Of a stretch of DNA of 64,000 nt, positions 7,101 to 62,134 are shown piece after piece. The position numbers and the translations under genes were made by a program. Every line of letters starts with the position of its first letter. The first letter of the stretch is position 1. The stretch comes from an uncultured Candidatus Saccharibacteria bacterium (lineage in GTDB: Bacteria; Patescibacteriota; Saccharimonadia; CAILAD01; GCA-016700035), in contig CAYMMM010000002.1 of assembly GCA_964391595.1 (NCBI GenBank), positions 16,843-80,842 on the forward strand, written 5' to 3'. The notes below the pieces were generated by a model. The model saw nothing but the letters and a program-made list of their open reading frames with translations. It ran no database searches and was not told the origin of the DNA.

Positions 7101-7140
7101 ACGTATTGGTAGATTCGTTGTGTTGTCGCTCTTCTGCGAC

Positions 7141-8931: not shown

Positions 8932-8939
8932 GCCACCCC

Positions 8940-9221
8940 CTACTGCCCAAAGATATTTTTATTGCCACCACATTTGTCTGGCTTGTCGATACACTTCTGT
9001 GGCGTAGAGTAGTCATTGAGGAGCTTGATGTCTTTGAGCTTATCGGCAGCGGTAGGCTTCGACGTACTTGCCTGATCGAGCGGAATCTTCACTGGACGAG
9101 GCACACTAACCTTAATACCACTATCTTGTGGTGCTGGCGCTAGCTGTGAATACAGAAGCACACCGGCAGCCACGAAGATCGCAATAGCTACAACCAGTCC
9201 AATCATATCGCGACGCTTCAT
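8940..9221 (-). CDS. Small single-TM protein in the pilMNO operon (PilP-like position)
   Basis: 93 aa, with an N-terminal TM segment (IGLVVAIAIFVAAGVLLY) and a C-terminal CxxxxxC pair. It overlaps the pilO stop codon. Confidence 0.4.
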   Translation of the reverse strand: MKRRDMIGLVVAIAIFVAAGVLLYSQLAPAPQDSGIKVSVPRPVKIPLDQASTSKPTAADKLKDIKLLNDYSTPQKCIDKPDKCGGNKNIFGQ

Positions 9222-9928
9222 TACTTCGCGCCCTCCGGATTTTTCTGATATTCACTCAACAATACCGATGAGTCTGTGATGCTCGGTTTGGCCTTGTAGT
9301 ACAACTTGTAGGTCATATCGAGTGTCAACGCATTACCACTCCCAGACAATTTGAGATTTGAAAAATCAAACACACGCTGCGAAGACTCGATTGCTTTCAG
9401 GAAATTCTTGATCTGTTCATACGTACCCGTAGATTTGAAGCTTAACTGGAAAGACTCTGCCTTCGTGCTCGTGGGAATAGTACTCGAGCTACCCGTAGCG
9501 GCCGTACGAGTCTCCTTGGATACATTATCAATCTGTACCAATGTCTGCGTCTGAAGCTTTTGGAAAATCGTCAGGATCGTACCTAGGTCATCTGTAGCGG
9601 GCAATACGCGCTCTGTTATGCGTGAAAAATCAGATACACCGCTCGAGTCTGCGACCTTGATCTTGTTGAGCTCTGGCTCTGCCTTAGCGAGCATGTCTAT
9701 CTTTGTTTTTGACAACGAGATCTGAATGTCTTGAGCTTTTATCTCGTTAGACTTGAGTATATTCGCCTGTGCTAGCTGATACACGAAGTATCCGCCGATA
9801 AGCACAATCAGTGTGGTCGCAGTGATCATGATAATCAAGAAATTACGCATCGTAGTCTGCTGTGACTGCGTCATCTTGGTCTCAGGAACCTGTATCTTAC
9901 GCGAAGATTCTGAAGCTTTTGGTGCCAT
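9221..9928 (-). CDS. PilO-like inner-membrane pilus alignment protein
   Basis: Single N-terminal TM segment with a coiled-coil/periplasmic domain. Its position after pilN is the typical one. Confidence 0.55.
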   Translation of the reverse strand: MAPKASESSRKIQVPETKMTQSQQTTMRNFLIIMITATTLIVLIGGYFVYQLAQANILKSNEIKAQDIQISLSKTKIDMLAKAEPELNKIKVADSSGVSDFSRITERVLPATDDLGTILTIFQKLQTQTLVQIDNVSKETRTAATGSSSTIPTSTKAESFQLSFKSTGTYEQIKNFLKAIESSQRVFDFSNLKLSGSGNALTLDMTYKLYYKAKPSITDSSVLLSEYQKNPEGAK

Positions 9929-9930
9929 AC

Positions 9931-10569
9931 CTACGATCCCTGCCCCGTGTTCTTTGCATCATTGCGAAACTTCTGTACTAAGTCCTTGTCTACCGTAAAA
10001 CTCACATTAAACTCTTTTTGATCACCGCTTGCTCGATTCTTTCGACTAGAAACTGAGTCAATTTTTACGTTTGTAAAGACTTGCTTGAGATCAAGACCTT
10101 GTACGCTACGTTCTTTAAACGTGTTGTATGTGTTAAGTGCACTACCGAAGAGGGCTACGGTATTGAAATCTGGTGCAGTAACTACTGCCTTGACCTGATA
10201 CCCTGGATCTACCGATAATGACGTCATCTTCACGTCCTTTGGCAGCGAGTCAGTTAGGCGATCAAAAAGCTGACTGATCAAGATTCGGTTATTACTGACG
10301 TCGTATGAAGCATCCAGCGATTCATTAAACCACGCCACATCTTGCTCAGTAGCCTGCTTGGCTGCTATGTCTTTTTTCAATGACTCGATCGTTGTGTTAT
10401 TCGTGTTGTACTGCAAAGTACGCGTACCTAGGAGCAACAGTAGAATGATAATCGAAGCACCGACGCTCGTCATAATCAGCCCACAAATAACCGTAATCAA
10501 CCTTCGTGTTTGCTGATTTTTGAGCTTGAGTATACGTGCTTCTGGGAGAAGGTTTACACGCAACGACAT
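9931..10569 (-). CDS. PilN-like protein
   Basis: N-terminus LRVNLLPEARILKLKNQQ followed by a TM segment is the hallmark of PilN. It follows pilM directly. Confidence 0.65.
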   Translation of the reverse strand: MSLRVNLLPEARILKLKNQQTRRLITVICGLIMTSVGASIIILLLLLGTRTLQYNTNNTTIESLKKDIAAKQATEQDVAWFNESLDASYDVSNNRILISQLFDRLTDSLPKDVKMTSLSVDPGYQVKAVVTAPDFNTVALFGSALNTYNTFKERSVQGLDLKQVFTNVKIDSVSSRKNRASGDQKEFNVSFTVDKDLVQKFRNDAKNTGQGS

Positions 10570-10570
10570 A

Positions 10571-11608
10571 TCACACCATATTCCTTAGAGCGAGACCGAC
10601 AGCAGTCGAATACGACAGGGCCATACCTGCAAGCCGATCGGTAAAGTCACGTGAGTAGCTGATCTTCTGCCAAGGGTTCCCCATCTCTACAGCTAAGCCG
10701 ATTGCGTTAGCAAGATACACCGGCAGCTCTGGCATGGCAGCTGGCCCGCCAGTAATCACGATTTTCTCGATCTTGCCAGGATTGCCTTGACTGTAGAAGA
10801 AGTCAACGGACTTGCGAATCTCATCTACGACGTTATCGATGAGTGGTTTCATAGCCCGGAAGACTTGCCCCTCGAGCTTCGTTTGCGTCATGCCAAACTT
10901 ACGTACGAACTGCTCGGCCTGAACTTCATCGAGCCCAAGGTTTTGTGCCGTCACACGTATGAGTGACTTGGCACCAATATTGACCGAGCGAATAAGTCCT
11001 GTCACACCCTTCGAAACGAGGGCTATATCGGTCGTCAGCGACGTGAAATCCACGACAACCACATCCATATCTGCGGCTGGCACCATAGCCCGAGCCTGAG
11101 CGATAGCATTCACATCGAGTGCCATGAGCTCGAGACCAGCCGACTGGAAGATCCCGAGATACTTATTTGCTACTACGGTTGGTGTTGCAACCAGGAGCAC
11201 GTCGATCTCTGGCACAGTCTTGTCTTGTGTAATCTTCGTAAAATCTAACTTCACTTGATCGAGCGGCATAGGGATGTATTTATCCGCCTGATACCGAATT
11301 GAGTGTGCGATCTCTTGCTCGGTCATCTGAGGCATCTTGATGATGCTCGCAAAGACCTTACTCGCAGGTAGACCGGCGACAACATTCTTTGTGCTGACAC
11401 GTGCGTCACTGGACAATTGCTTCACAGCAGCAGCTACCCGCTCGAGGTCAGCAGGCGCATCAGAGCTCAAAATACCCTGTGGCAATTCAATATCACCGTA
11501 CGTTACTAACGTAGGTTTATCATGGATATGCTTGAGCTCAACGAGACGAATCCCGGAGTTCCCGAGATCGACACCAAAGTAATGTTCGTCTTCTGTGAAT
11601 ACTTGCAT
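10571..11608 (-). CDS. pilM: Type IV pilus assembly protein PilM (actin-like ATPase)
   Basis: 345 aa with FtsA/PilM-like motifs (GVDLGNSGIRLVEL; DVNAIA) and the typical position before pilN. Confidence 0.85.
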   Translation of the reverse strand: MQVFTEDEHYFGVDLGNSGIRLVELKHIHDKPTLVTYGDIELPQGILSSDAPADLERVAAAVKQLSSDARVSTKNVVAGLPASKVFASIIKMPQMTEQEIAHSIRYQADKYIPMPLDQVKLDFTKITQDKTVPEIDVLLVATPTVVANKYLGIFQSAGLELMALDVNAIAQARAMVPAADMDVVVVDFTSLTTDIALVSKGVTGLIRSVNIGAKSLIRVTAQNLGLDEVQAEQFVRKFGMTQTKLEGQVFRAMKPLIDNVVDEIRKSVDFFYSQGNPGKIEKIVITGGPAAMPELPVYLANAIGLAVEMGNPWQKISYSRDFTDRLAGMALSYSTAVGLALRNMV

Positions 11609-35836: not shown

Positions 35837-36769
35837 TCAGCGAGAAGCTAAGCTAAGCACCAGATCAGTCATGGCCTGGTGCGGTTTTTTTAGGCCTGAT
35901 TTTATTGCCATATCCGCGTCTAGCAAGTCCTGATAACTCAGTGCAAGGTACGCATCCGAGCACTGCTGCGCCTCTTGCTTTGCCCTCGTAGCAGCCGATG
36001 ACTTAACTCCACACGCAGTCAACTCGCCAGTGGTAGCACCAAAATGCACCAACACTAATACTCGAAAATGCCACTGCAATGTAGCCAGGATTTGCTGCTC
36101 ATTACCGCCGGCACCCATCAGCTCGTCGTACCGCCGAAGTGCATCCTGAGGTGCGTGTCGTCGCAGAGCTGCGATGAGATCAAAAATCGAGCTTGATGGG
36201 TCGGCTGCGACTATTTCATCGACCAGAGCCTTCGTTATCTCTCCCCCATCCGCTCCAGCAGCAAGCTTAGCCAGCTCATGTGCGAGTCGCCACTGTGCGT
36301 CTGTGTGCGTTCCTACTCGTTGTATGAGGTACTGAGCAACCGGTCGGCTAAGCACCGCGTCGAGCCCTTTCGCCTCACGCTGAGCCCAGGTAATCATCTG
36401 GGATTCGGTAAGTTGTTCATATATTTTGGCAGAAGGAAGTGCCGCCAATCTCTTATACAACCGAGATCTTCGATCCAGGCCACGACCATCAAGCACTGCA
36501 ACCGTTGATTCGGGTGTTCGTTCGAGTACCGGCATTAATATATCAGGATCGATCTTACCCGCTCCTAGTGCGTGGACTATGAGAAGCCGGTGTGTAAAAA
36601 ACATAGGTGTCGCCATCAGTTGCTGCTCAAGCTGCGGTATTGTCATCTCACTCAAATCACACTCTACCATCTCAAGTGCATCGGTGTACTTCTGGACGTA
36701 CTGTTTACGCAGTTTTTGCAGATGTTGCACGATTGCGTAATCATTATTCCCGCCTAAGAAAACAATCAT
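35837..36769 (-). CDS. holA: DNA polymerase III delta subunit (HolA-like)
   Basis: 310 aa with a delta-like N-terminus; overlaps the fpg stop codon by 4 bp. Confidence 0.65.
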   Translation of the reverse strand: MIVFLGGNNDYAIVQHLQKLRKQYVQKYTDALEMVECDLSEMTIPQLEQQLMATPMFFTHRLLIVHALGAGKIDPDILMPVLERTPESTVAVLDGRGLDRRSRLYKRLAALPSAKIYEQLTESQMITWAQREAKGLDAVLSRPVAQYLIQRVGTHTDAQWRLAHELAKLAAGADGGEITKALVDEIVAADPSSSIFDLIAALRRHAPQDALRRYDELMGAGGNEQQILATLQWHFRVLVLVHFGATTGELTACGVKSSAATRAKQEAQQCSDAYLALSYQDLLDADMAIKSGLKKPHQAMTDLVLSLASR

Positions 36770-37659
36770 TTCTTCACCTCGATCTGACAGTGCGGGCAGA
36801 TATGTGTCCCCCGTCCGGCTACACGCAATTTTATGAGTGGTGCACTACAACGCTCACAGGGTTGACCTTCACGCCGGAACACCTTCGCAAATGTCAGATA
36901 GCTCCCTTTCTTGCCCTCTGCATCAACGTAATTCTTATCACTGGATCCGCCAAGTGAAATCGAGAGCTGCATCACCTCACGCAGCGCTTCATAAAGACGC
37001 TTCAACTTTACAGTACTAACCCGCTCGACAAGAGTAGCTGGATGGATCCGAGCCGCATACAAACCTTCATCAGCATAGATATTTCCTACCCCAGCCATCA
37101 CCGATTGATCCATGATGGCAGCCTTGATGCTTGTACGCTTGCGGCGCATGAGGCGCAATCTAAAGCTTTCAAAAGTAAAGTCCGGGCTCAGCATTTCTGG
37201 CCCCAACTTCGCGATAAAACTGTCCTCTGCTACCTTCGCTGTCTCGACAAGTTTCATCCAGCCAAACTTACGCTGGTCATTAAAGAACAACTTAGAACCA
37301 TCCTCGAAACTGATACTCACTCTCGTACTCCTATCCGGTAGCCTGCCTATAAGACTATCGGTCGGATGACCGCCGCCGAAACCTTCCCGCGCCCCTGTCT
37401 TCGTATGAAAGCGGAACACCAGCTGCCCCGTCATCTTGAGATGTATCAGGAGTGAATAGCCCGTATCGAGACCAATAATTAAACCTTTACCGCGTCGATC
37501 GACATCAGTAATCTTAGCGCCAATCATCTGTGAGTCCACGACTTCCGGATCGTTTGGAAAACTCTTTGGCGTCTCCACTTCTACCGAGGTGATAATTAAC
37601 CCCGGCAGCATCGAAAGTAAGCCCAGTCGAATCGTCTCTACTTCTGGAAGTTCAGGCAT
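36766..37659 (-). CDS. mutM: Formamidopyrimidine-DNA glycosylase (Fpg/MutM)
   Basis: MPELPEVETIR N-terminus with catalytic Pro2, an H2TH domain, and a C-terminal zinc finger (CERCSAPL...CPHCQ). Confidence 0.9.
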   Translation of the reverse strand: MPELPEVETIRLGLLSMLPGLIITSVEVETPKSFPNDPEVVDSQMIGAKITDVDRRGKGLIIGLDTGYSLLIHLKMTGQLVFRFHTKTGAREGFGGGHPTDSLIGRLPDRSTRVSISFEDGSKLFFNDQRKFGWMKLVETAKVAEDSFIAKLGPEMLSPDFTFESFRLRLMRRKRTSIKAAIMDQSVMAGVGNIYADEGLYAARIHPATLVERVSTVKLKRLYEALREVMQLSISLGGSSDKNYVDAEGKKGSYLTFAKVFRREGQPCERCSAPLIKLRVAGRGTHICPHCQIEVKK

Positions 37660-37677
37660 CCATCCCCCAGTCGGCGA

Positions 37678-40437
37678 TTATTCACCAAGCTCACCCCAAT
37701 TTGATCCAACTGCCTCCCCTACTTCAATTGGAACCTTGAGCGTAATAACCTGCTCCATAGTATCTCGCAGGAGCTGCTTAACTTCCTCGACCAGTTTCTC
37801 ATCACATTCGACGATCAGTTCGTCGTGAATCTGTAAAATCATATGCGCCTCACCGTCTAGTTTCGCTAGTTTTGGTGCCAACTGAATCATCGCTAACTTC
37901 ATCATATCGGCAGCTGTACCCTGGAGTGGCATGTTTACAGCTTGACGCTCTGCAGCAGATCGAACAATAAAGTTACTCGACTTCACATCAGGACATGGGC
38001 GCCTTCGGCCATACAATGTTTCTGTATACCCCTCTTCTAATGCCTGTTTTTTCAGCTTTTTGATATACTCCGCAACACCTTTTCGAAGCTCGAAGTACTT
38101 ATCAATAAACTCCTTACTCTCTTCATAGCTCATGCCAGTAGCAACCGACAGTCCATGCGTATTCATACCATACAGCACACCAAAATTGATCGTCTTTGCA
38201 CCATATCGCTGATCCTTCGTAACCTCTTCAGGTTTCACGCCATTCATTTGAGCAGCTGTTAGTGTATGGATATCGATGCCTGACTTGAAGTCTTCAATCA
38301 TCTGCTTGTCATTTGCCATGGCGGCGGCCAGACGCAATTCAATCTGACTATAGTCGGCCGATACAAACATCTTGCCCCTCTCAGCGACAAAGCCCTTGCG
38401 AATTTCACGCCCCAACGGAGTACGGACTGGGATGTTCTGAAGGTTTGGATTGTTACTTGATAGTCTCCCTGTTTGCGCAATCGTCTGCTGATAGCTGGTA
38501 TGCACACGCCCGGTCTTCGGCTGCACGAGAAGAGGAAGCGTGTCCACATACGTACTCTTTAGTTTAGCTACTTCCCGATAATCAAAGATGAGATCAATGA
38601 TCGGGTGTTTGCCGCGCAGCTTCTCGAGTTCGCTCGCAGCCGTCGATGTCCCGCCGCTCTTCACCTTCTTAAGTCCCTCACCCTCGATCTTGAGCTTGTT
38701 AAACAAGATATCCTTCAACTGTTGAGTAGAATTGATATTAAATTCCTCACCTGCCTGCTCATAGATCTGCTCTATGGTTTTTGAGAGACGCTTATCCAGC
38801 TCTTTCGAAAACTTGGCGAAGAACACCGAATCAAGCTTTACGCCCGTGAGCTCAACGTCACCGAGCACAGGGATGAGTGGCCACTCGAGCTGGCGTGCCA
38901 CCTCATCAAGCTTGCCGATCTTCTTAAGTTCTTTGCTGAGCTTCAGATAAAGTCGCCAAGCAATATCGGCGTCTTCAGCAGCATATTTGACCGCCTCATC
39001 GATTGGCACCTGGTCAAATGTTTTTTGATTCTTCCCTCGCGCGCCAATAAGCTCCGTTATCTCGATCATCTCGAGGCCTAATTCTGCCAAGGCTAAGCCT
39101 GATAGCGTCTGTGCTCGCCCCATAGGGTTGATAAGAAAGGCCGCAACCATAGTGTCAAAGCAAATCCCCTGCATCGTCACGCCAGCCTGCTTGATGACCT
39201 GATAGTCGTACTTGATGTTGTGCCCGATCTTCCCGATCTTCGGGCTTTCAAGAACTGGTCGCAATGCTTCAAGCACCGTTGCGGCAGGCAGCTGCTCTCC
39301 CTCCTGATGACCGACGGGTATGTAATACGCCTTACCTTCTTCCCATGCTAACGAGATACCGACGAGATCGGCGGCAATCGGCTCCACCGAGGTTGTCTCA
39401 GTATCAATAGAGAATTCCTTAAGTGTTGTAAGTTTTGCAACGATATCATTGAGCTGCTTCTCGGTTGTAACTGCTTCATATTTGGCAGTCTTCAAGTGAG
39501 TACGCAGGCGATCATGATCACGTGCATCAACATCATAGATATCGTCGAAGAGATTCTTCTGCTGCCCAACCTCGCTCTGCGGCAGCTTCGCTATCAGCGA
39601 CCGAAACTCAAGCTTATGGAGCAACTGCACAACCTTCTCACGATCGTAGCGATGGAGCCGGGCATCCTCGAGCTCAAATTCGCATGGTACATCACGTACG
39701 ATTGTCGAGAGTTCAAGTGATCGATACGCGTCATCCTTCCCAGCCTCAAGCTTAGCGCGCACCGCAGGCTTGATCTCATCTAAGTGTGCATAGATTCCAT
39801 CTAAAGTTTTATACTGCACCACGAGATCCGCAGCCGTCTTCTCTCCAATGCCTTTGACTCCAGGTATGTTATCACTTGAGTCACCCTTGAGTGCTTTGGT
39901 TACTAGGAAACCCTCTGGGTCGACGCCATATCGCGCCTCTACAGCGGCGGGGTCATAGAGTATGGTATCCGAGAAACCACGCTTGAGCGTATAGATACTG
40001 ACATACTCATCCACAAGCTGAAGCTCATCCATATCGCCAGTCACGATAACGACTTCATGCTTCGACTTGAGCTTTTCGGCGAGCGTACCGATAACATCAT
40101 CAGCTTCGTAGCCTGTTACGCCAACGACGGGAATCTCAAACGCCTTCAGAAGATCCTTAGTCACATCAAACTGCGGTACGAGGTCTTTATCTGTCTCCTT
40201 GCGGGTCGCCTTATACTTTTCGTCGAGGTCATGTCGAAACGTCTTACCAGGCATATCCCAAGCCACTACCACGTATTCAGGCTTGAGCTCCTTGATGGCA
40301 TTGAGCAGCATCATCGTAAAGCCATAGACACCGTTGGTTGGCGTGCCGTCTTTCGTGCTTAAAAATGGTATGGCGTGAAAACCGCGATGTAGCAGGGCAT
40401 GCCCGTCAAAAATCGCTACGCGTGATCGATTGGTCAT
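37678..40437 (-). CDS. polA: DNA polymerase I
   Basis: 919 aa: 5'-3' exonuclease, 3'-5' exonuclease-like domain, and polymerase motifs A/B/C (DYSQIELR; the ...QGTAADMMKLAMI helix). Confidence 0.95.
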   Translation of the reverse strand: MTNRSRVAIFDGHALLHRGFHAIPFLSTKDGTPTNGVYGFTMMLLNAIKELKPEYVVVAWDMPGKTFRHDLDEKYKATRKETDKDLVPQFDVTKDLLKAFEIPVVGVTGYEADDVIGTLAEKLKSKHEVVIVTGDMDELQLVDEYVSIYTLKRGFSDTILYDPAAVEARYGVDPEGFLVTKALKGDSSDNIPGVKGIGEKTAADLVVQYKTLDGIYAHLDEIKPAVRAKLEAGKDDAYRSLELSTIVRDVPCEFELEDARLHRYDREKVVQLLHKLEFRSLIAKLPQSEVGQQKNLFDDIYDVDARDHDRLRTHLKTAKYEAVTTEKQLNDIVAKLTTLKEFSIDTETTSVEPIAADLVGISLAWEEGKAYYIPVGHQEGEQLPAATVLEALRPVLESPKIGKIGHNIKYDYQVIKQAGVTMQGICFDTMVAAFLINPMGRAQTLSGLALAELGLEMIEITELIGARGKNQKTFDQVPIDEAVKYAAEDADIAWRLYLKLSKELKKIGKLDEVARQLEWPLIPVLGDVELTGVKLDSVFFAKFSKELDKRLSKTIEQIYEQAGEEFNINSTQQLKDILFNKLKIEGEGLKKVKSGGTSTAASELEKLRGKHPIIDLIFDYREVAKLKSTYVDTLPLLVQPKTGRVHTSYQQTIAQTGRLSSNNPNLQNIPVRTPLGREIRKGFVAERGKMFVSADYSQIELRLAAAMANDKQMIEDFKSGIDIHTLTAAQMNGVKPEEVTKDQRYGAKTINFGVLYGMNTHGLSVATGMSYEESKEFIDKYFELRKGVAEYIKKLKKQALEEGYTETLYGRRRPCPDVKSSNFIVRSAAERQAVNMPLQGTAADMMKLAMIQLAPKLAKLDGEAHMILQIHDELIVECDEKLVEEVKQLLRDTMEQVITLKVPIEVGEAVGSNWGELGE

Positions 40438-40445
40438 ACCTGATA

Positions 40446-41255
40446 TTATACGCGTTTTTCAGATAAGGAGGAGTCCGGGTGACTGAGCATCTGTGTTTTG
40501 AGGATGAGAAACAGCTGCCGCATACTATCTGCTATCTGTTGGGAGTGAATAACGGTCCCAAAAACCTCTTGCCCATAGCTCAGATAGGCTACCTTATCGG
40601 CATAGACATTGATCTCTACCGGCATGTTATAGATATCGGGATCATAGAAGGTGTGCTCAATCAGGTGCTCCGTATGCTTTGCGGGAGTTTTCGCGAGCGT
40701 GAATCCTTTTGGCGTTAGCGACTGCACATGTATCCCCTTGCGAACTCGTGTGGCAACAAAATCATCAAGATACTCACTCCCGAGAAAATCATGCTGGTTT
40801 GGAGAAATGATGAGCATCACATCAGCTTTCGTCTGTAGAATATCATCATAAATATCCTTCAAACCCTCAACTCCCTGATACTGCCTTACTGCTGGTTGCT
40901 CGGTTAGCTGATGATAACGCTGCGTCAAACTCGGTAACAGTGATTTAAAACGATATTCATTATTGAGCAAAATATTTCTTCGACGCTCTACCAGGGTTTC
41001 GATGTTGATTGGATTGGCTGGCAAGTAGCTGAGCTTCTTCCCTATTTTTGATTTACTTACGAGATTAAGCTCCTCGAGCCGCGCGAGTATCGAGTAGGCA
41101 TTTGTGCGAGTTTCTTTGAGCTTCTCTGACACGAGCGTAGGTGTGATCTCGCCCACTTCTAGTGCCAGCAAATATGTCTGGGCTTGATTCTTATTAAGTC
41201 CAAGGCCCTCAAGAATCGCTATGTCGGTTGGTTCTGTGGGTTTTGTCGATTTCAT
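40446..41255 (-). CDS. TrmB-family transcriptional regulator
   Basis: N-terminal winged HTH (ILEGLGLNKNQAQTYLLALEVGEITPTLVSEKLKETRTNAYSILARLEELNLV) is TrmB-like; a C-terminal domain follows. Confidence 0.55.
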   Translation of the reverse strand: MKSTKPTEPTDIAILEGLGLNKNQAQTYLLALEVGEITPTLVSEKLKETRTNAYSILARLEELNLVSKSKIGKKLSYLPANPINIETLVERRRNILLNNEYRFKSLLPSLTQRYHQLTEQPAVRQYQGVEGLKDIYDDILQTKADVMLIISPNQHDFLGSEYLDDFVATRVRKGIHVQSLTPKGFTLAKTPAKHTEHLIEHTFYDPDIYNMPVEINVYADKVAYLSYGQEVFGTVIHSQQIADSMRQLFLILKTQMLSHPDSSLSEKRV

Positions 41256-41560
41256 TTCGACATTATTATAGCAAATATATATCTGTAAGTACAGTATTTT
41301 GCCATTACATATTGACTATTAGACGTATTCGTCCCATACTAGGCCCATCAAAACAAACAGCACCTAGATATCAAATGAGTCACCCGCGAAGCCCCACTGG
41401 CTGACGATATACATCGTCCATCAATGGGACTTTACGACCCAATACCTTTCTACAGACCTCTTACAGAATCTCGACAGTTGCCTCGGAACAGCTGCCGGGA
41501 TCCCAAAGATCTCGGGTTTAGACCCGGCAAAATTCCGAAAACCGGACTCATACAGCAACA

Positions 41561-42631
41561 GTGCCAACGACTGACTCGTTGGAAAAGCACCTACCAAGGA
41601 GTAAAATGTTCCAGTTCATCCTGTTCATCCTGTTGGTCGTGGCCGCCGTGGTCATGGTCGGCATGGGTCGCAAGACCTTCGCAGAAGGTTCGAGCGACGA
41701 GATGAAGGTCAACTTCCGGGCGTTCAGCCCCATCCCCCTACTCCTGGGCATCCTCATCCTCTTCTTCAGCACGTTCACCACGGTGGACGGTGGCTTCGTC
41801 GGTATCCCGAAAGCTTTCGGGTCGTACGGTACGCCGCTCGGAGAAGGAGCCCACTTCGTCGCCCCCTGGGCAGACGTCGTGGATCTCGAGGTCAGAACCC
41901 AGGAATACACCATGTCATCCAAAAGCTCCGAAGGCAACGTCAGCGGCGACGACTCCGTCTCCGTTACCGCCTCCGACCAGGTGACAATCGGTGTGGATGC
42001 AACCGTGCTCTACCGCCCGAATGCCAAGACAGCCGACAAGCTGATCAAGGACCTCGGCGAGGAGTACGTCGGCAAGATCGTCCGCCCCACCGCTCGTCAG
42101 GTCATCCGAGACGTCGGCACCCAGTACTCGGGTATCGACCTCGTGACCTCAAAGCGTCAGGCGTACGCCACGCAAGTCAAGGAGGAGATCACCAAGAAGG
42201 TGGCCGCCTACGGCATCACCATCGAGGACGTCAAGATCCGTGACATGAGCCTGCCGAAGCCCCTTGAGGAAGCCGTGAACGCCAAGGCCACCGCCGCTCA
42301 GCTCGCTGACCAGAAAATCAACGAGCTCAGGCAGGCCCAGCTGCAGGCCGACATCGACCGAACCAAGGCGCAAGCCACGGCCGACAGCCAGCAGATCGTT
42401 GCGTGTGGCGGTCACCCCGAAAACGTGACCGTCGACGGCCAGACCAAGCAGGTCGTCGTGCCCAATCGTGGCGATCAGTGCGACCAGCGTCAGCTGACAC
42501 CGGAGTTCCTCCAGAGCCAGTACATCCAAGCCCTCAAGGCAGTGGTGGATTCGCCGAACAACTCGACGATCATCCTCCCGATGGATCAGGGGCTGACCCC
42601 CCAGCTGATCCTGCCCAACGGCAAGGGCTAA
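41561..42631 (+). CDS. SPFH/band-7 (prohibitin/HflC-like) membrane protein in a GC-rich island
   Basis: N-terminal TM segment (FILFILLVVAAVVMVGM), an SPFH core and a coiled-coil tail. Codon third positions are almost all G/C, unlike the flanking genes. Confidence 0.8.
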   Translation: MPTTDSLEKHLPRSKMFQFILFILLVVAAVVMVGMGRKTFAEGSSDEMKVNFRAFSPIPLLLGILILFFSTFTTVDGGFVGIPKAFGSYGTPLGEGAHFVAPWADVVDLEVRTQEYTMSSKSSEGNVSGDDSVSVTASDQVTIGVDATVLYRPNAKTADKLIKDLGEEYVGKIVRPTARQVIRDVGTQYSGIDLVTSKRQAYATQVKEEITKKVAAYGITIEDVKIRDMSLPKPLEEAVNAKATAAQLADQKINELRQAQLQADIDRTKAQATADSQQIVACGGHPENVTVDGQTKQVVVPNRGDQCDQRQLTPEFLQSQYIQALKAVVDSPNNSTIILPMDQGLTPQLILPNGKG

Positions 42632-42759
42632 CTGCAGTAACCGGCCTATCGAGGGCCTTTTGCCCCTCGTCTGATACTCGAGCAGCCTCTCGAATACCCC
42701 ACCCCTTGCAACATAGGGGTGGGCTTACCTGTATTTGCATAATTGCCGATAGCACCAGC

Positions 42760-43074
42760 ATAATGAATGTCATGAGCAAGACAGATGATGAACCAGGACG
42801 CGAGCTTACGACCCACGAGGAAGTAACGGGCGTCGACACACCAGAGGGGCGTGCCGGGCTTACAGATGCCTTGAGGGGCTTGCGCGATCTCGCAGTACAA
42901 AATACTGCTACTGAAGGTACGCAGCCCGGCTGGCGCATCAGTACAGAAGAACGAGCTGTCGGTAAGACAAACTTACCTAGAGCACGAGATGCACTGCGCG
43001 CTACTGAGTCACCGACTATCAAGCTAGCCCGTGAGAAAAAGGTCCGAGACGCTACTAAAAACGACCCGCAATGA
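42760..43074 (+). CDS. Possible small acidic/hydrophilic protein (~104 aa) inside the GC-rich island
   Basis: MNVMSKTDDEPGRELTTHEEV... is the C-terminal part of a longer spurious ORF. Its stop codon sits in the loop of the 43061-43088 terminator hairpin. No SD is visible. Confidence 0.25.
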   Translation: MMNVMSKTDDEPGRELTTHEEVTGVDTPEGRAGLTDALRGLRDLAVQNTATEGTQPGWRISTEERAVGKTNLPRARDALRATESPTIKLAREKKVRDATKNDPQ

Positions 43075-43088
43075 GCAGGTCGTTTTTT
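43061..43088. terminator. Bidirectional intrinsic terminator closing the GC island (+) and rpoD (-)
   Basis: Stem ACGACC (43061-43066) pairs with GGTCGT (43078-43083), followed by TTTTTT (43083-43088) on the plus strand. On the minus strand the same hairpin is followed by TTTTAG. The rpoD stop codon is 17 bp away. Confidence 0.6.
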
Positions 43089-43104
43089 AGTTTTGGCTAT
43101 ACTC

Positions 43105-44247
43105 CTACTGTAGGTAGTCTTTGAGGCGCTTGGAGTCTTTGTGCTTACGGAGCTTCGCCAAAGCTTTCGCTTCAATCTGGCGAATTCGTTCGCGCGTCAC
43201 GCCAAACTCCTGCCCGACTTCTTCGAGCGTATGGCTTCTGCCGTCCTCGAGACCGAAGCGCATGCGCAAGATCTTCTGCTCTCGCGGTGTAAGGAGCGAC
43301 AACGTATCGTTGATATGTTCCTTCAGAAGCTCATACGTCGCAGCATCTACTGGCGATACGGAGTCCTGATCCTCGATGAACTCACCAAGCGTAGAGTCTT
43401 CGTCCTCACCTACGGCCGCATCAAGCGAGGTTGTATCCTGGCTAATCTTCTGGATATGCAAAACTTTCTCGACATCCATTTCCATTTCTTTTGCCAGCTC
43501 TTCTGGGCTTGGCTCACGACCCAGCTCACTCGTCAATCGTCGTTGGGTACGAATAAGCTTGTTGATCGTCTCTACCATGTGCACTGGAATACGAATCACA
43601 CGAGCTTGGTCAGCAATCGCACGGGTAATTGCCTGGCGGATCCACCAAGTAGCGTAGGTAGAAAACTTAAAACCTTTGGTGTAATCGAATTTTTCTACAG
43701 CGCGCAGAAGACCCGTATTCCCCTCCTGAATCAGGTCGAGCAGATCTAGACCGCGACCAATGTATTTTTTCGCAATCGAAACAACGAGGCGCATATTTGC
43801 TTCGGCGAGCGCGTCCTTGGCTGATTTATCGCCTTGCTCGATGCGCTTCGCAAGCGCAACCTCTTCCTCGGCATTAATCAGTGGTATCTTCCCGATCTCA
43901 CGCAAGTAGAGACGCACAGAGTCATCAGCGATGTCTTTGATCGCCTCCTCGCTCACAGCATTTTCTACATCTTCCTCAGGTTCTGTCTGCCAAATAAGCT
44001 TGTCTTTTTGATCTACTACTTCAATGCCTGCATCAATCAGGGCAGAATAGAGATCATCAAGTAGGTCTACTTGTTCTTCTGCTTGAGGGATAGCCTGTAA
44101 TACTTCTTGCTGCGTGACAAAGCCTTGTTCGCGACCTTTTGTAACCAGCCTCTGCACTGCTGGCTTCAGCTCTTCAGGGATGTTTGGCTCGAGATTACGT
44201 CCCTCTTCTGGCTGTGCTTTTTTGCGTGGCATAAAAAATCCTTCCAA
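43105..44247 (-). CDS. rpoD: RNA polymerase sigma factor RpoD (sigma-70)
   Basis: Regions 1.2, 2 ([27 protein letters not shown]), 3 and 4 ([24 protein letters not shown]) are all present. Confidence 0.95.
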
Positions 44248-44286
44248 ATTATCTAGTTTGCAATGTAATCAATATGATAGGTGATG

Positions 44287-46077
44287 TTAGTAGAAGGTAC
44301 TTTCGTCTTCCAGTAAGCCCTGGTAAGCTTTGAGAATTTCACCTGCCGACTTGGTATCCCCTTGCTGTTCAGCGACGGCAAGCTGGCGTGATAATTCCCG
44401 CTTCTTTAGAGTAAAAATATGTTTTTGTATTGTGTGTACTTGGGTAAAGGCTTCGAGCCCGCGTTCGTGTTCGCTAAGATGCGAATATTCATGTTCACCC
44501 CGTAGTGATAGCATCTTAACATCATCTTCCTTATCTGGCAAGAGTTTCGAGAGGGCGTCCTCACTGATATCAGGTGAATCAATCAAAGCCTTCATGAGTG
44601 GCTTATTGCCATCTGATATATCAGAGATATTAAGATCTTGAAGCACAATTCTGGTGTCTTTGAACGCCAACACCATCTCTATGAGCATATCTTCGAGTTG
44701 CTCTTGTCGCGAACGTTTTTTTGGTGCCTGAACATGCTGCGCAGCAGCCTCTTCTGGCTGAACTCTTTTGGTGCTCATTTGAGGTGTTTTTTGTTTCGTC
44801 TTACTTACTTGTTCTCGAAGTAGATCAGCACTGACACCCACCATAGAAGCAGTTTGAGATATGTAGTGCTCACGCTCAACTGAGTCAGTCAGACGAGCCA
44901 GAATAGGGATAACAAACTGTACAAATTTCTTCTTCCCATCCCCTGTAGACAGGTCATGCTGCGCAGCTGCGTAGCTAATGATGTAGTCGACAACATAAGC
45001 AGCCTGCTCGTAAGCCTCTTTCCACAATTTTGGATCCTGCTTTATCAGCTCATCGGGGTCTTTTGCTGATTCAAACTGGATCACTTCGAGACGAATCGGA
45101 AGACCAGCCCCGAGCTCAAGCGTCCGCTGTGTTGCCTTTACCCCAGCTTCGTCTTGATCAAAACAAAGCTTGATGCGGCTTGCCATACGACTCAGACTTA
45201 AGAGCTGCTCATGTGTCAGGGCTGTCCCACTCACCGCTACGACTTGCTCATACCCTGCCTGCCAGATACTAATCACGTCAAGATGACCTTCGACAATGAT
45301 TACTTCATCCTTGGTGCGGATCGCTTTTTTGGCTTGCTTCAAACCGAATATCGCACTCGTCTTATGGTAGATAGGTGTGTCTGGGGAGTTTATATACTTA
45401 GCGGCCTTCGCTTCACCAAGAAGCCGACCCGAAAAACCCACTGCCCTACCACGCGCATCGTACACAGGAAACATAATGCGGTCACGAAATACATCAAATC
45501 CTGACGTACGACCTGCCTTTTGACTACTCAAGCCAGCCTGCTTGAGCTCTTGAAGGCTATATCCACGTTTTACTGCATATTCAGTAAAACTCGACCAGTC
45601 TTCTGGAGCATAGCCAAGGGTATATGCCTTTATCGCCTCAGCCTTAATCCCTCGCTTATCCTTAGTATACGCAAGAGCTGGCTTGGACTGAGAAAGCTGC
45701 AGATGATAATACTTCACCGCAAGTTCCACGAGCTCATACAGGCGCGTACGATCATCACGAGGAGCGCGTGCCTGCTTGCTAAGCGTAACCCCGGCTCGTT
45801 GCGCCAACATCTCGAGTGCTTCAGGGAAGCTAATCCCCTCGACGCGCATCACGAAGCTAATCACGTCACCACCTTCACTGGCTCCGAAGTCATGCCAAAT
45901 CTGTTTGTCTGGACTCACAAAGAAACTGGGCGTTTTCTCATCCCGAAACGGCGAGCGCGCCTTGTAGTCTTTACCGGCTTTCTTCAACTCGATATAGCCA
46001 CCAATCACATCGACAATATCGATCTTCGACTTGACTAGTTCCGCATCATTCATACTGACATTATAGCCTGCTACCAC
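44287..46077 (-). CDS. dnaG: DNA primase DnaG
   Basis: Zinc-binding domain, TOPRIM motifs (EGHLDVIS; DQDEAG) and a C-terminal helicase-interaction region. Lies upstream of rpoD, the classic arrangement. Confidence 0.9.
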   Translation of the reverse strand: MVAGYNVSMNDAELVKSKIDIVDVIGGYIELKKAGKDYKARSPFRDEKTPSFFVSPDKQIWHDFGASEGGDVISFVMRVEGISFPEALEMLAQRAGVTLSKQARAPRDDRTRLYELVELAVKYYHLQLSQSKPALAYTKDKRGIKAEAIKAYTLGYAPEDWSSFTEYAVKRGYSLQELKQAGLSSQKAGRTSGFDVFRDRIMFPVYDARGRAVGFSGRLLGEAKAAKYINSPDTPIYHKTSAIFGLKQAKKAIRTKDEVIIVEGHLDVISIWQAGYEQVVAVSGTALTHEQLLSLSRMASRIKLCFDQDEAGVKATQRTLELGAGLPIRLEVIQFESAKDPDELIKQDPKLWKEAYEQAAYVVDYIISYAAAQHDLSTGDGKKKFVQFVIPILARLTDSVEREHYISQTASMVGVSADLLREQVSKTKQKTPQMSTKRVQPEEAAAQHVQAPKKRSRQEQLEDMLIEMVLAFKDTRIVLQDLNISDISDGNKPLMKALIDSPDISEDALSKLLPDKEDDVKMLSLRGEHEYSHLSEHERGLEAFTQVHTIQKHIFTLKKRELSRQLAVAEQQGDTKSAGEILKAYQGLLEDESTFY

Positions 46078-46128
46078 TGTAATTCACGAGAAAAACCGAT
46101 CGGGATACGAAAGTTTTTGTGCTTTTCT

Positions 46129-46698
46129 TCACGCAAGGTACGACAATAGTTCAGGAAAGGTGTTCATACCTCTCGAGCCAAGAAAGTGACCGAGTCCATC
46201 CATTTCGACGAGCCTCGCATCAAGCATGCTTGCTAAGGAACGCGTCCGCGCTGGGCGTACGATGGTGTCATCGCGGCTCAATATGCACACGTACTCGCTC
46301 GCGACAATCTTGAGCCGAGTCCAGTCAGGCTCTGGTTGAAAGAACGCTGACGCTCGCTCATCAGGTGCATCATAGAAGCCCGACACCAAAATGACCTTAT
46401 CTACTCGCCCATCAATATCACAAGCCTCCAGCGCCCTTAAGGCCTGCCAACACCCCAAAGAGTGAGCTACGATCGTATCTCCGGGTGCGATAGCTGAGAT
46501 CAAGTCTTGAAGTGCTTGATTCCATGTGAGTATGTCCTCACGGTGGCGGATGGTGGGAAATCTCGGGGCAAGCACCTGAGCACCCTGGCTGCGTAGCAGT
46601 TCTTGCAACCAGCCCAACCAACCGCCTGTAGGATCGTCATCCCAACCGTGGAGGACGATGAAGCGCCTGCCCGACCAAGCGCCTACTTCCATTGCCAA
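46129..46698 (-). CDS. Small alpha/beta serine hydrolase (RBBP9/YdeN-like)
   Basis: 189 aa; nucleophile elbow AHSLGC; a conserved HGxxD and a late His. Confidence 0.55.
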   Translation of the reverse strand: MAMEVGAWSGRRFIVLHGWDDDPTGGWLGWLQELLRSQGAQVLAPRFPTIRHREDILTWNQALQDLISAIAPGDTIVAHSLGCWQALRALEACDIDGRVDKVILVSGFYDAPDERASAFFQPEPDWTRLKIVASEYVCILSRDDTIVRPARTRSLASMLDARLVEMDGLGHFLGSRGMNTFPELLSYLA

Positions 46699-47789
46699 GA
46701 TTCGAGCACATGATCAAACGATTTGCGACTGAAGTTGTCATTATAGGCACCCGTGATCGTAAAGGCGATGTAGTTTTTATCGCCAAATTGCTGATCGGTT
46801 TCGGGCAAAACGATGAATACATTTATGTAGACAGGGTTCCCTCCTGCTTGTGCTGCGCCGACGACTTTTACGGCATCTATATTCCCTACTTTGATATCTT
46901 CCCGAGCAGAAATGGACTTTCCCGTAGTTGCGTTCGTGATCAGAGCCTCCATAATTTTCTGTGAGTCAAACCGCTGACCAGTCCGAGTCTCAGTACTAGA
47001 CGGTGAAGGCGACGCCGATGACGCATCTTGCGCGACGAAGTCAAAGTCGCGAAAGGTAGAAATCACAACTGATGAGACCTTCTGTGCGCCGTAAAAGGCA
47101 GAAAGCTGGCAGTCCTTATTGATATCAACACGAGGAGCTGTCGGTATCTGTACGGTATAGCAGCCAGTATCTAATCGCTCATATCCCGCAGCAAGTTGTT
47201 TTTCTGCCGTATCACGGATCGGCTTAGCAGCAGTACTGGGAGTAGGGGTAGCAACCTGCTTTTGAGTCGTGAGGCGGAGCCCAATGAATATGCCTCCAAG
47301 CACAACTAATACGATCAGACCAATCATGACCAGTCGATAGGGTCCGCGCTTGGGGACGTTGCTCTTCGGCATGGGTGGCGCTGTATTTGTGGGGACCGGT
47401 TGAGGAGCGACATTACTGGTGGGCATACTGTAGCTCGTGGCTGTGGATTGTGGTGTCGGGGCCAGTCTGACAGGCGCAGGAGTAATCGGCGCAGGCGGAG
47501 GAATGACTGACAATTCATCGTCTAAAGGCGATGTGCCTTCTGGCGTTGGGAGCACCTCAGAAATAGGTTCGTGCGGTGGTGGGGCAACAACTGGTGACTC
47601 CTGCAGATCTGGAGTCACCCCAGCAGATGGAGCAAGGGGCGGTAGCTGAGCGGTATTTTGGGCATACCCCTGAGCCAAGGGGTTGTGAAAGACTGGCACC
47701 TCTTGGTGTTGTGGTTCAGCACTACTCGGCGGTGGTGGAACGGGTGGCGTCGCAGACGGGTCGCTAGGGTTGTTTGTATCAGGAGGCAT
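46683..47789 (-). CDS. Proline-rich N-terminal, single-TM protein with an extracytoplasmic domain ending ...WQWK
   Basis: 368 aa; the Pro-rich region reaches residue ~150, then a TM segment (LVMIGLIVLVVLGGIFIGL). The C-terminal domain is paralogous to 47832..48470. Confidence 0.5.
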   Translation of the reverse strand: MPPDTNNPSDPSATPPVPPPPSSAEPQHQEVPVFHNPLAQGYAQNTAQLPPLAPSAGVTPDLQESPVVAPPPHEPISEVLPTPEGTSPLDDELSVIPPPAPITPAPVRLAPTPQSTATSYSMPTSNVAPQPVPTNTAPPMPKSNVPKRGPYRLVMIGLIVLVVLGGIFIGLRLTTQKQVATPTPSTAAKPIRDTAEKQLAAGYERLDTGCYTVQIPTAPRVDINKDCQLSAFYGAQKVSSVVISTFRDFDFVAQDASSASPSPSSTETRTGQRFDSQKIMEALITNATTGKSISAREDIKVGNIDAVKVVGAAQAGGNPVYINVFIVLPETDQQFGDKNYIAFTITGAYNDNFSRKSFDHVLESWQWK

Positions 47790-47831
47790 AGATACTTCAA
47801 GTATAGCAGAGATAGATACTGCTCATGGTAC

Positions 47832-48470
47832 CTAAAACCGCCACTGCCACTGTTCGATAGTCGACTGTGCAAGGTCCTTGTCAGTCTGGCTCGTATACCA
47901 AGCCCGGAGCTCAAATTCCTTAATGGCAATGTTGTTGCGCAACGGCAACGCGTCATCAAGAAGTAAAAGATATGTCACCATAGATTCTTTGTTTTGCGGA
48001 TAATACTCGATATACCGTATTGCTTTCTTGCCACCCCACAACACTTCATCACGGCTCGCAAGCTGCGCATCTAGCCTCTGCCAGCGCGTGCGCCAATCCG
48101 TGTCGACATCTTTGACTTGACTCGGATAGTAGGTGTTCAGTGTGATATATGAATGCTTCCATGGCTGGGCATAAGCACTAAATGCGCACGTATCGTCTTG
48201 TATTTCCGGCTCAAACGCATCTGGAAGCAAAGTCCCACTGCAAGATGTCTCGACCAATCTCTGCCCTGCCTGGGCTTTAATGCCGAGTGGCTTCGGCTGA
48301 AAAACCACTGACACCCCGCCTTTCCAAGCGCTCGGAACCAAGTATACCCAGGCGACATAGAGAAGCAAAAATATGCCCAATATGAGACCAATAAACAAAG
48401 ACCAGTATTGAAGACTCTCTGGAAGCTTACGCATGATGGAGGTAGCGCGTATAGCGATCCCAGCGCACAC
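47832..48470 (-). CDS. Single-TM membrane protein, paralog of the 46683..47789 C-terminal domain (ends ...WQWRF)
   Basis: TM segment (LFIGLILGIFLLLYVAWVYLV). The C-terminal blocks align with the neighbouring gene. Confidence 0.45.
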   Translation of the reverse strand: MCAGIAIRATSIMRKLPESLQYWSLFIGLILGIFLLLYVAWVYLVPSAWKGGVSVVFQPKPLGIKAQAGQRLVETSCSGTLLPDAFEPEIQDDTCAFSAYAQPWKHSYITLNTYYPSQVKDVDTDWRTRWQRLDAQLASRDEVLWGGKKAIRYIEYYPQNKESMVTYLLLLDDALPLRNNIAIKEFELRAWYTSQTDKDLAQSTIEQWQWRF

Positions 48471-61528: not shown

Positions 61529-62134
61529 GTGTACCTGGAAGGCAAGAACATGCATGCACCTCGAAAGAGGCCCCGAAGTCCGAAGCTGGCCGCGCTGCTC
61601 ATCATCGCAGCAATCGCTGTCTTTGGCTCGGCCTGCGACTACAACCCCATCCTCGGCTTCGCGCCGAGCGATCTGCAGGCCTTCAACGCCCTACACGGCA
61701 CCAACGTCACGATGGAGGATGCCAACGCCGCCTGTGCGCAACTGAACGCCGCTGGTGACCCGACCAAGTGCCAGAAGACGGTCGACTACCTGAACGGCCT
61801 CAAGCTGTCGCAGGCCCGCAAGAAGCCGGTGCCACCGACGGTCGCGGCCGTCAGCTGGTATGACCCGGCTGGGCTCGGTGGCATGTGTGCCTCAGGGCCC
61901 TGCCCGCCGAACAACAGCTTCTCGTGCGCGCACAAGACCGCGCAATTCGGGACGCTGCTCAGACTGACCAAGAACGGGCGATCCATCGTCTGCACGGTCG
62001 TCGACAGAGGGCCGTACATCTCAGGCCGTGCGGTGGACCTCTTCCCTGCGCCCGCAGAAGCGCTGGGCCTGAAGGGGCCAACAAGAAACTCAGGACCCGG
62101 TGTCTTGAGTGGCGTCACCATCGCCATGGCCTAG
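61529..62134 (+). CDS. RlpA-like double-psi beta-barrel (DPBB) lipoprotein in a GC-rich island
   Basis: Signal peptide with a lipobox-like VFGSAC. The DPBB signature runs VSWYDPAGLGGMCASGP...AHKTAQFGTLLRLTKNGRSIVCTVVDRGPYISGRAVDLFPAPAEALGL. Codon third positions are strongly G/C-biased. Confidence 0.7.
   Translation: MYLEGKNMHAPRKRPRSPKLAALLIIAAIAVFGSACDYNPILGFAPSDLQAFNALHGTNVTMEDANAACAQLNAAGDPTKCQKTVDYLNGLKLSQARKKPVPPTVAAVSWYDPAGLGGMCASGPCPPNNSFSCAHKTAQFGTLLRLTKNGRSIVCTVVDRGPYISGRAVDLFPAPAEALGLKGPTRNSGPGVLSGVTIAMA

Follow-up and report, generated by a model that had tools for sequence, protein, structure and literature searches.

The window analyzed here is a 64,000-nt stretch of contig CAYMMM010000002.1, with a mean GC of about 50%. 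By its PolA sequence and the GroEL of its lineage, the genome is that of a Saccharibacterium. Between a gene for a TrmB-family transcription regulator and rpoD, the window carries an open reading frame (ORF) for a protein of 341 amino acid residues with an SPFH (band-7) domain. The ORF lies at 41606–42631 on the + strand, with its ATG at 41606 and its TAA at 42629–42631. We think it likely that this ORF is a single horizontally acquired gene of an actinophage-type lineage, swapped into a slot that is native to the bacterium. As the source, actinophage DNA appears likelier than the chromosome of a host.

The lineage was assigned as follows. The closest named relatives of the PolA are labeled “Patescibacteria group bacterium” (74% identity) and “Candidatus Saccharibacteria bacterium” (about 60%), and the relatives of the lineage’s GroEL are named Patescibacteria or Candidatus Saccharibacteria. 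A first-pass annotation of this DNA had raised the possibility that the genome belongs to an epibiont lineage of Actinobacteria, and these relatives bear it out.

Composition of the SPFH Gene

The first-pass annotation described an island from 41400 to 43090 in which nearly every third codon position is G or C. The bias is real. Among 57 long, non-overlapping ORFs of the window, which served as the comparison set, the SPFH ORF has the highest G + C fraction at third codon positions (GC3): 0.836 when counted from the ATG at 41606, which is also the start used in public assemblies, and 0.826 when counted from an upstream GTG at 41561. The other 56 ORFs have a mean GC3 of 0.527 with a standard deviation (sd) of 0.062, which places the SPFH ORF at z = 4.96 (robust z = 5.9). 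The corresponding values for first and second positions, GC1 and GC2, are ordinary. The three 1-kb segments of the 64 kb that deviate most in tetranucleotide composition start at 41751, 41501, and 42001, all on the SPFH gene, with L1 distances of 0.551, 0.518, and 0.469 against a mean of 0.310 (sd 0.038). The 1-kb bin from 42001 to 43000 has the highest GC of the window, 0.597.

It is the extent of the island that does not stand. In 100-nt steps, GC is 0.37–0.50 up to 41599, 0.56–0.65 over 41600–42699, and 0.47 at 42700. The compositional anomaly is one ORF wide, 41606–42631, and is not a 1.7-kb island; the sliding checks of GC, GC3, and tetranucleotides that had been suggested do find a significant deviation, and it is confined to the SPFH ORF. 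A ribosome-binding site, AAGGAG (41596–41601, +), precedes the ORF. Together they make up a foreign cassette, 41597–42632 (+), the only GC3-rich, compositionally deviant DNA of the locus. The features that had been taken as the limits of the island are native. The lead-in at 41256–41560, read at first as a compositional switch, is part of a segment, 41256–41597, that aligns at 76% identity with the sister contig L006, where unrelated genes follow. An ORF of about 104 codons, tentatively counted in the island, has a GC3 of 0.48, and L006 has its ortholog at the matching place. The terminator hairpin exists (43057–43087), but it lies about 430 nt past the foreign segment and does not mark its end. 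For annotation practice, the lesson is that a GC3 anomaly can span a single ORF and that neighboring “boundary” features, such as a lead-in or a terminator, can be native.

Codon usage was compared by likelihood per codon. The codons of the SPFH gene fit the usage of the actinophage contig L003 (−0.866 per codon) better than that of the window (−1.147), whereas for polA, rpoD, TrmB, and the small ORF the order is reversed and the usage of the window fits better. Under the window’s own codon usage taken by itself, the SPFH gene is not singled out (z = 0.4). Since that usage is nearly flat, only the contrast with a phage reference set is informative. Horizontal acquisition of the SPFH ORF from a high-GC source is supported.

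A Slot with Exchangeable Cargo

Contigs of sister genomes were fetched by the identity of their PolA, 88–77%. They show a conserved backbone, dnaG-rpoD-small ORF-...-polA-fpg-holA-S20, and they differ from one another between rpoD and polA. In L007 (PolA 81%), L008 (77%), and L064 (80%), the interval holds the small ORF or a short spacer only. In L006 (86%) and L061 (84%), it holds the small ORF, two other genes, the same leader as in the window, and TrmB. In the window, it holds the small ORF, the SPFH gene, the leader, and TrmB. A metagenome scan with TrmB yielded one more locus, a single one of 2.1 kb, L059. The comparison gives the pattern of a genomic islet: at this position, the SPFH gene is absent from L006, L061, and L059, which have other cargo there, and from L007, L008, and L064, which have none.

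The edges of the exchange are sharp. The window and L006 are homologous at the DNA level from polA across TrmB and the lead-in as far as 41597, and again at 42648–42743 (96 bp, 85%). In the four slot variants, the 5′ junction lies directly after CACCTACCA (41588–41596) and the 3′ junction directly after the TAA-C of the cargo (alignments A2 and A4). When L059 (1–2122) and L061 (7510–9948) are compared, the 1106 bp of TrmB and leader are 100% identical and the 132 bp of the 3′ hairpins 97% identical, and the cargo between these flanks is unrelated (884 vs. 1201 bp). This pair is evidence, from alignment, that cargo has turned over very recently.

No tRNA gene was found within 36000–48000, no direct repeats were found at the slot junctions by a repeat search, and no integrase lies beside the slot, whose neighbors are TrmB, polA, the small ORF, and rpoD. 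As judged from its gene content and junctions, the slot is a small replacement-type variable locus, not an integrative element. The SPFH gene as it stands in the window is well attested: the same 341-residue protein, plus exact TrmB and PolA, is on record in NCBI, ENA, and Logan, with 197,575 bp as the largest contig size, and its 90%-identity cluster has three more variants, which lie on other contigs.

The alternative cargo in L006 (7625–8836, −) and L061 (7647–8974, −) consists of a transmembrane (TM)/coiled-coil protein and a lipoprotein. The cargo proteins of the two contigs are 45–49% identical, and their genes have a GC3 of 0.63–0.89. Both proteins from L006, g180 and g198, match cultured actinophages, each with a match list of 18 Arthrobacter, six Microbacterium, and four Curtobacterium phage records. 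Their homologs are adjacent and in the same order in Microbacterium phage Percival (gp28–29) and Arthrobacter phage Raphaella (gp72–73), where the gene pair is uncharacterized. No PADLOC family matches the L006 cargo proteins. The L059 lipoprotein has only distant phage relatives (Vibrio phages, 27–32%). Taken by their homologies, the slot’s occupants are repeatedly phage-type envelope genes, and a phage source for the SPFH gene gains credibility from this beyond what the tree alone (see below) would give it. The lipoprotein ORF of L006, of 198 residues (7625–8221, −), has a GC3 of 0.89 and phage homologs, and a public call of a 220-residue gene on the opposite strand (7526–8188) is probably wrong.

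Relatives and Source of the SPFH Gene

A word-indexed search of 5.8 billion proteins returned 263 homologs of the SPFH protein. By identity, they comprise the species’ own cluster (99%), protein P0002 (77%), a handful at 46–58%, and a large set at 36–45%, whose named members are from Acidimicrobiia or Actinomycetota.

P0002 is encoded on contig L001, beside a PIN gene and groES/groEL, a different locus from that of the window. The GroEL of L001 is 87% identical to named Saccharibacteria GroEL and 85% identical to the GroEL on the window’s own 197.6-kb contig. Homology between the window and L001 starts at the ATG and ends near the stop codon. It had been proposed at the outset that a nearest homolog from the lineage of the flanking genes would tell against foreign origin, and P0002 is, formally, such a homolog. 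It does not rescue a native origin, because the locus is different, only the ORF is shared between the two loci, and the pair is nested in a phage clade.

L001 has further GC3-rich ORFs (0.71–0.95) among ordinary genes, at 5537–5956, 6177–6743, 6883–7299, and 9306–9716. Import of high-GC genes seems to be common in this group of Saccharibacteria.

The contigs that carry the homologs at 46–58% are tightly filled with small ORFs, most of which point the same way. L003 (59 kb, 59% GC) encodes Phage_ssDNA_bind, Tad3, and a primase/polymerase; the latter matches phrog_4210 (E = 1e-280) and shares 58% identity with its counterparts in Gordonia phages of ~60 kb. L002, a jumbo-phage-like contig of 220.8 kb and 36.7% GC, encodes WhiB, HNH, SSB, NAMPT/NAPRTase, and PTP phosphatase proteins. 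L005 encodes WhiB, a sigma factor, which gave no host signal, and Rpf-like and SLT transglycosylases. On L063, a 704-residue protein is 41% identical to one of a 485-kb uncultured phage, with Rhodococcus and Mycobacterium phages next, and the short contig L062 has a layout like that of the other phage-type contigs. The SPFH gene of L002 has a GC of 0.47, well above that of its contig, and it seems that the gene moves between phages of very different composition.

A neighbor-joining tree (335 columns, 100 bootstraps) was rooted on Bacteroidota/Ignavibacteriota. The sequences from the window and L001 form a clade with 100% bootstrap support, and this clade is nested in another 100% clade, of nine sequences, with those from the phage-type contigs. 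The next group includes L009, a chromosomal copy from Actinomycetes with ordinary cellular neighbors, and all the remaining sequences are from Actinomycetota. The phylogeny of the SPFH gene conflicts with that of the flanking genes: PolA and GroEL point to Saccharibacteria and the SPFH protein to phage contigs and Actinomycetota.

A profile scan with alignment A1 covered one genome for each of 185,579 species. It found the SPFH subfamily in Actinomycetota (36–45% identity; 58–75% GC), distant members (30–33%) in Bacteroidota/Ignavibacteriota and also in Kryptoniota, and no member in Patescibacteria. When the same collection was scanned with the single SPFH protein, no relative was found; alignment A1 was needed. 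A “57%” match from Microthrixaceae was rejected as a closer relative, as it covers no more than 77 conserved residues at the C terminus of a copy with a frameshift. The first-pass annotation had named a high-GC actinobacterial host as the obvious donor. That idea survives in part, in that the gene is foreign, came from a higher-GC pool, and belongs to a subfamily centered on Actinomycetota; the chromosomal homologs, however, are only 36–45% identical, and those of the phage-type contigs 46–58%.

The SPFH Protein

The identification of the product as an SPFH/band-7 protein was correct. It matches Pfam Band_7 (PF01145) with E = 1.4e-30 and 107 bits, against a cut-off of 23.6, over residues 74–258 of a 356-residue reading and profile positions 2–174 of 176. 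It also matches phrog_200 (E = 1e-50). The AlphaFold2 model of the monomer, with a predicted local distance difference test score of 82, has an SPFH domain, a coiled-coil helix of 50 residues (218–267), a β hairpin (269–286), and a further helix (299–314). Foldseek aligns nearly the whole chain to prohibitin, stomatin, HflK/C, erlin, and QmcA, with a probability of 1.00 and E values down to 1e-15. The top match among viral models is the band-7-like protein of Streptomyces phage StarPlatinum.

The C-terminal module is conserved in the subfamily and has two invariant cysteines, C267 and C292 (alignment A1: ATADSQQI.ACGG ... C.Q.QLTP.YLQ..YIQALK..V.SPNNST). At the N terminus, there are two TM/hydrophobic helices, residues 2–20 and 42–56, joined by a loop with R22, K23, K33, and R37; the chromosomal homologs have a basic stretch ahead of a single TM helix. 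The positive-inside rule predicts an outward-facing SPFH domain and Cys pair, as in HflK/C.

The protein scores far below the equivalog cut-offs of NCBIfam for HflK and HflC (hflK, 30.1 vs. 159.4 bits; hflC, 16.5 vs. 134.4 bits). There is no paralog beside the SPFH gene, which is a single gene, and no NfeD neighbor: the only adjacent ORF on the same strand (42763–43074) is native and without a Pfam match. Because the cut-offs were not reached and NfeD is missing from the neighborhood, we file the protein in the prohibitin-like SPFH superfamily and not as HflK/C. By analogy with that superfamily, it may oligomerize into a prohibitin/HflK-like cage. Compared with the L001 copy, the ratio of nonsynonymous to synonymous substitution rates (dN/dS) is 0.13, with dS saturated. 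The SPFH gene is thus maintained by purifying selection.

Alternative Explanations

If the gene had come directly from the high-GC chromosome of an actinobacterial host, with no phage involved, the chromosomal homologs should not trail the phage-type contigs in identity (36–45% vs. 46–58%), the bootstrap support of 100% for a clade of phage and Saccharibacteria sequences would be hard to place, and so would the phage-type nature of the alternative cargo. We consider this explanation unlikely. It does draw on the facts that the subfamily is common in Actinomycetota chromosomes of 58–75% GC, that L009 sits in an ordinary cellular context, and that Saccharibacteria live on Actinobacteria and take up DNA (PMC10633639). 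In addition, the two sources would be hard to tell apart if the chromosome of the host contained a prophage. Another explanation is that of one old acquisition in an ancestor of the Saccharibacteria, followed by vertical descent, relocation, and loss in the intermediates, with the present position being the result of internal shuffling. The 100% clade of the window and L001 copies would suit it, as would the dN/dS of 0.13, which shows long-term function. So would the divergence of the two copies (76% of amino acids identical, with dS saturated), about that of PolA between the window and L064 (80%), which comes from the same sample as L001. Yet a GC3 of 0.84 in a genome of GC3 0.53 has outlasted the saturation of synonymous sites, when amelioration should have erased the signal. 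Moreover, the gene is missing from the slot in L006, L061, L007, and L008, no Patescibacteria match was found among the species-representative genomes, and cargo has been swapped between 100%-identical flanks, so turnover is recent. We consider an old acquisition quite unlikely.

Much less probable than either is a native gene whose high GC3 reflects selection, on expression or messenger RNA structure, or biased gene conversion. A force specific to the locus is conceivable, given that the cargo of the sister slots is also GC3-rich (0.63–0.89). Translational selection was rejected as the cause; native housekeeping genes of the window, such as rpoD, polA, and the S20 region, have a GC3 of 0.45–0.58. 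Neither the leader nor the 3′ flank of the same transcript is GC-rich, the gene is absent from the sister genomes and from Patescibacteria at large, and its relatives are in phages and Actinomycetota. Finally, the genome is evidently metagenome-derived, and sharp compositional switches can mark chimeric assemblies or contaminating reads. We give this almost no credence here, as both junctions lie inside sequence common to the sister genomes, the ORF stands exactly behind the native ribosome-binding region, and the identical protein is found in NCBI, ENA, and Logan assemblies on several contigs of up to 197.6 kb, in addition to the three variants elsewhere.

Acquisition from an actinophage-type lineage is the reading that we prefer, and several observations weigh against it. 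Branching within the clade of nine is poorly supported (16–38%), in a neighbor-joining, not a maximum likelihood, tree of 335 columns. A scan of IMG/VR with alignment A1 found no relative, and tblastn against 50,697 phage records found only distant SPFH proteins (<30%) and no cultured donor. The assignment of hosts to the phage contigs is based on WhiB and on likeness to actinophage replication proteins, not on CRISPR (clustered regularly interspaced short palindromic repeats) matches. No sampled phage or actinobacterium is closer than 58%, which means that the real donor is unsampled. Outside the species, it is another Saccharibacterium that has the nearest homolog (77%), so the gene may have made its last move from one Saccharibacterium to another and not out of a phage. 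The SPFH copies of the window and L001 have diverged about as far as the PolA of the two lineages. This fits an old single acquisition, but GC3 should then have decayed, and it has not. The persistence of a GC3 of 0.84 at a PolA-like divergence suggests either separate acquisitions from related phages or a force that maintains GC3. The junctions of unrelated cargo also coincide within a few nucleotides, and recombination in the flanks accounts for swapping and not for the first exact placement. As to function, PADLOC gave no match to the SPFH protein, the small ORF, or TrmB, and there are no defense genes nearby. Our best guess at the role is membrane protection or partitioning, possibly with exclusion of competing phages.

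Expression Signals and Flanking Genes

The leader of the slot (41256–41596, +) is native and precedes differing ORFs in L006, L061, and L059 (alignment A2, blastn). A promoter scan placed a promoter-like site, TTGACT-17-CATACT, at 41312–41340 (+), and its core is invariant in all four slot variants. It is followed by about 260 nt with long invariant blocks, which end in CACCTACCA. The invariant block of the leader at 41345–41596 (+) reads TCTCGACA..CTCGGAA..TGCCGGGATC..CCGGG..AATTCCGA..CCGGA.TCATA. RNAalifold, run on three distinct leaders, gave 50 pairs, nine of them compensatory, which with three sequences can be taken as a lead only. The single-sequence fold of the window’s leader stands at z = −2.4 relative to shuffles. 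The leader is probably a structured 5′ untranslated region. Rfam covariance models gave no match to the + strand of 41256–41605 even at E ≤ 10, and on 41150–43150 they gave matches at chance level only, none of them on the leader. We regard the leader as a candidate for a new cis-regulatory RNA beside a divergent TrmB regulator. No second copy of the leader occurs in the window, not even upstream of the ORF at 61529–62134 described below.

The native 3′ flank of the slot (42633–42762, +) has three hairpins, at about 42650–42668, 42678–42693, and 42698–42723. It is kept in L006, L061, and L059 right after the stop codons of unrelated cargo, and the stems show compensatory changes (alignment A4, blastn). 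The flank folds at −42.1 kcal/mol (z = −2.3). The hairpins probably act as a terminator or stabilizer for the cargo. Further on, the bidirectional terminator hairpin at 43057–43087 (both strands) is formed by inverted repeat I3, with 13-nt arms that are 92% complementary. It folds with an energy of −16.6 (+) and −21.7 (−) kcal/mol, which lies at z = −4.0 and −6.8, respectively, relative to shuffled sequences. The hairpin, with the stop codon of the small ORF in its loop, serves the convergent pair of the small ORF and rpoD.

The TrmB-family regulator (40446–41255, −; Pfam TrmB, E = 1.3e-8; GC3 0.49) is native and divergent from the cargo slot. Its ortholog at the matching position is 84% identical in L006 and 62% identical in L061. 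TrmB was found only in relatives with a cargo slot; L007, L008, and L064, which are more distantly related, have neither TrmB nor cargo. On the far side of TrmB lies polA (37678–40437, −), the native backbone gene by which the sister genomes were found. On the other side of the slot, the small hydrophilic ORF (42763–43074, +; 103 residues; GC3 0.48) is convergent with rpoD and is called as a gene in public assemblies. It has an ortholog in the same place in L006 (53% identity, E = 4e-21), weaker matches among L007, L008, and L061, and no match in Pfam, NCBIfam, or PADLOC. On this comparison, the small ORF is native, fast-evolving, and outside the foreign segment. The rpoD gene (43105–44247, −), the native backbone gene that flanks the slot, is 90–98% identical to the rpoD of L006, L007, and L008, and Sigma70 domains are present in the orthologs; dnaG is also among the slot’s neighboring genes. 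As mechanically called, rpoD begins at a TTG (44232–44247, −), which gives 380 residues. The true start is probably the ATG five codons later, which gives a protein of 375 residues that begins with MPRKKAQ, as in all relatives.

Two other regions of the window may be mentioned. The ORF at 61529–62134 (+) encodes an RlpA/DPBB lytic-transglycosylase-like protein and is the second GC3-rich ORF of the window (GC 0.64, GC3 0.80). It ranks second among the tetranucleotide outliers, and in codon usage it is nearer to the actinophage reference than to the window. We take it as probably a further envelope gene of foreign origin. The other region is a gene cluster for type IV pili (2943–11608, −), which encodes a prepilin peptidase (A24), a PilC-like T2SSF protein, two T2SSE ATPases (PilB/PilT-type), and PilM. 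The GC3 of the prepilin peptidase gene is raised, at 0.68, and the cluster bears on DNA uptake and host attachment in Saccharibacteria.

A Proposal for Capture and Function

Saccharibacteria have tiny genomes and depend on actinobacterial hosts, and for this reason the genes that they import reveal what limits their lifestyle. Natural competence has been described in them: DNA is integrated through homologous recombination, and the process depends on comEC (PMC10633639). CRISPR spacers of Actinomyces and Corynebacterium also target phages for which Saccharibacteria are the predicted hosts (PMC10746230). Competence and shared-phage spacers make the uptake of phage DNA at the epibiont–host interface plausible. 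We propose the following sequence of events. Host phage or prophage DNA would reach the epibiont at the cell–cell interface, where the naturally competent Saccharibacteria would take it up and recombine it. Once in place, cargo could be exchanged between strains by homologous recombination in the conserved flanks alone. The resident promoter and the ~260-nt leader beside TrmB on one side and the 3′ hairpins on the other bound this hypervariable “expression slot”. The product is predicted to insert by its two N-terminal helices, with the SPFH domain, the coiled coil, and a disulfide-bonded C-terminal module outside the cytoplasmic membrane. An extracytoplasmic cage of this kind would partition or protect the membrane, for example by blocking the entry of competing phages, as it would for a phage.

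It is tempting to go one step further and to view the slot, with its TrmB regulation and structured leader RNA, as an integrase-free, competence-driven platform. Such a platform would capture and swap envelope genes of host phages, both SPFH cages and membrane-protein/lipoprotein pairs, which would serve the epibiont as superinfection-exclusion or surface-protection modules, borrowed for use against phages in contact with both partners. We offer this as a speculation that is unlikely to be right.

What we find noteworthy is that envelope genes of actinophages have repeatedly been captured downstream of the same promoter and leader. The finding suggests that the imported pool of Saccharibacteria includes genes of host phages and not host genes alone, and that such genes are set downstream of a promoter and leader already resident at the locus, whose content changes between strains that are otherwise identical. 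If it is true that the cargo protects the envelope or excludes phages, epibiont–host–phage ecology would be linked to a concrete locus. The locus is testable because Saccharibacteria are genetically tractable by natural transformation.

Comparison with Known Systems

A literature search found no paper on this locus or on this SPFH subfamily. The protein resembles prohibitin, HflK-HflC, stomatin, and QmcA in its Band_7 match, predicted SPFH1/2 fold, long coiled-coil helix, C-terminal cap, and N-terminal anchor. In contrast with these proteins, it has two N-terminal TM helices and not one, and its subfamily has a C-terminal module of its own with an invariant Cys pair. There is also no second subunit and no NfeD, and the identity to solved members is only 14–21%. 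The band-7-like proteins of actinophages (phrog_200), such as those of Streptomyces phages StarPlatinum and Comrade and Microbacterium phage Magritte, share the domain and the overall architecture and are phage-borne. Those from cultured phages are, however, less than 30% identical, and the relatives at 46–58% are found only on uncultured phage contigs.

The slot itself is most like the flexible genomic islands of the replacement type. As in these islands, there is a fixed site between core genes, with unrelated cargo between near-identical flanks and with no integrase, tRNA, or direct repeat, and all the cargo is predicted to be membrane protein or lipoprotein. The slot differs in being very small, with one or two ORFs, in that the expression signals (shared promoter, leader, and hairpins) belong to the slot and not to the cargo, and in that its cargo can be traced to the host organism’s phages and not to conspecifics. 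There is also a likeness to the gene-cassette platform of integrons, namely a resident promoter, promoter-less exchangeable ORFs, and a hairpin-forming sequence after each cargo. Unlike integrons, the slot has no integrase beside it and no cassette array, and there is one slot per genome, so the two are alike in function only. We also weighed an integron-like mechanism and rejected it, as there is no adjacent integrase, no array, and no attC-like core site at the junctions of alignment A4, inspected by eye.

Acquired genes, variable hotspots, and host-to-epibiont transfer are already known. The arginine deiminase system is an example of host-to-epibiont gene transfer in Saccharibacteria (PMC8764695). 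With that case, the window shares a foreign gene tied to the actinobacterial partner, and with the shared phages (PMC10746230), a phage pool that touches both partners. What sets the window apart is that a dedicated variable slot holds the cargo, and that this cargo is an envelope gene of phage type.

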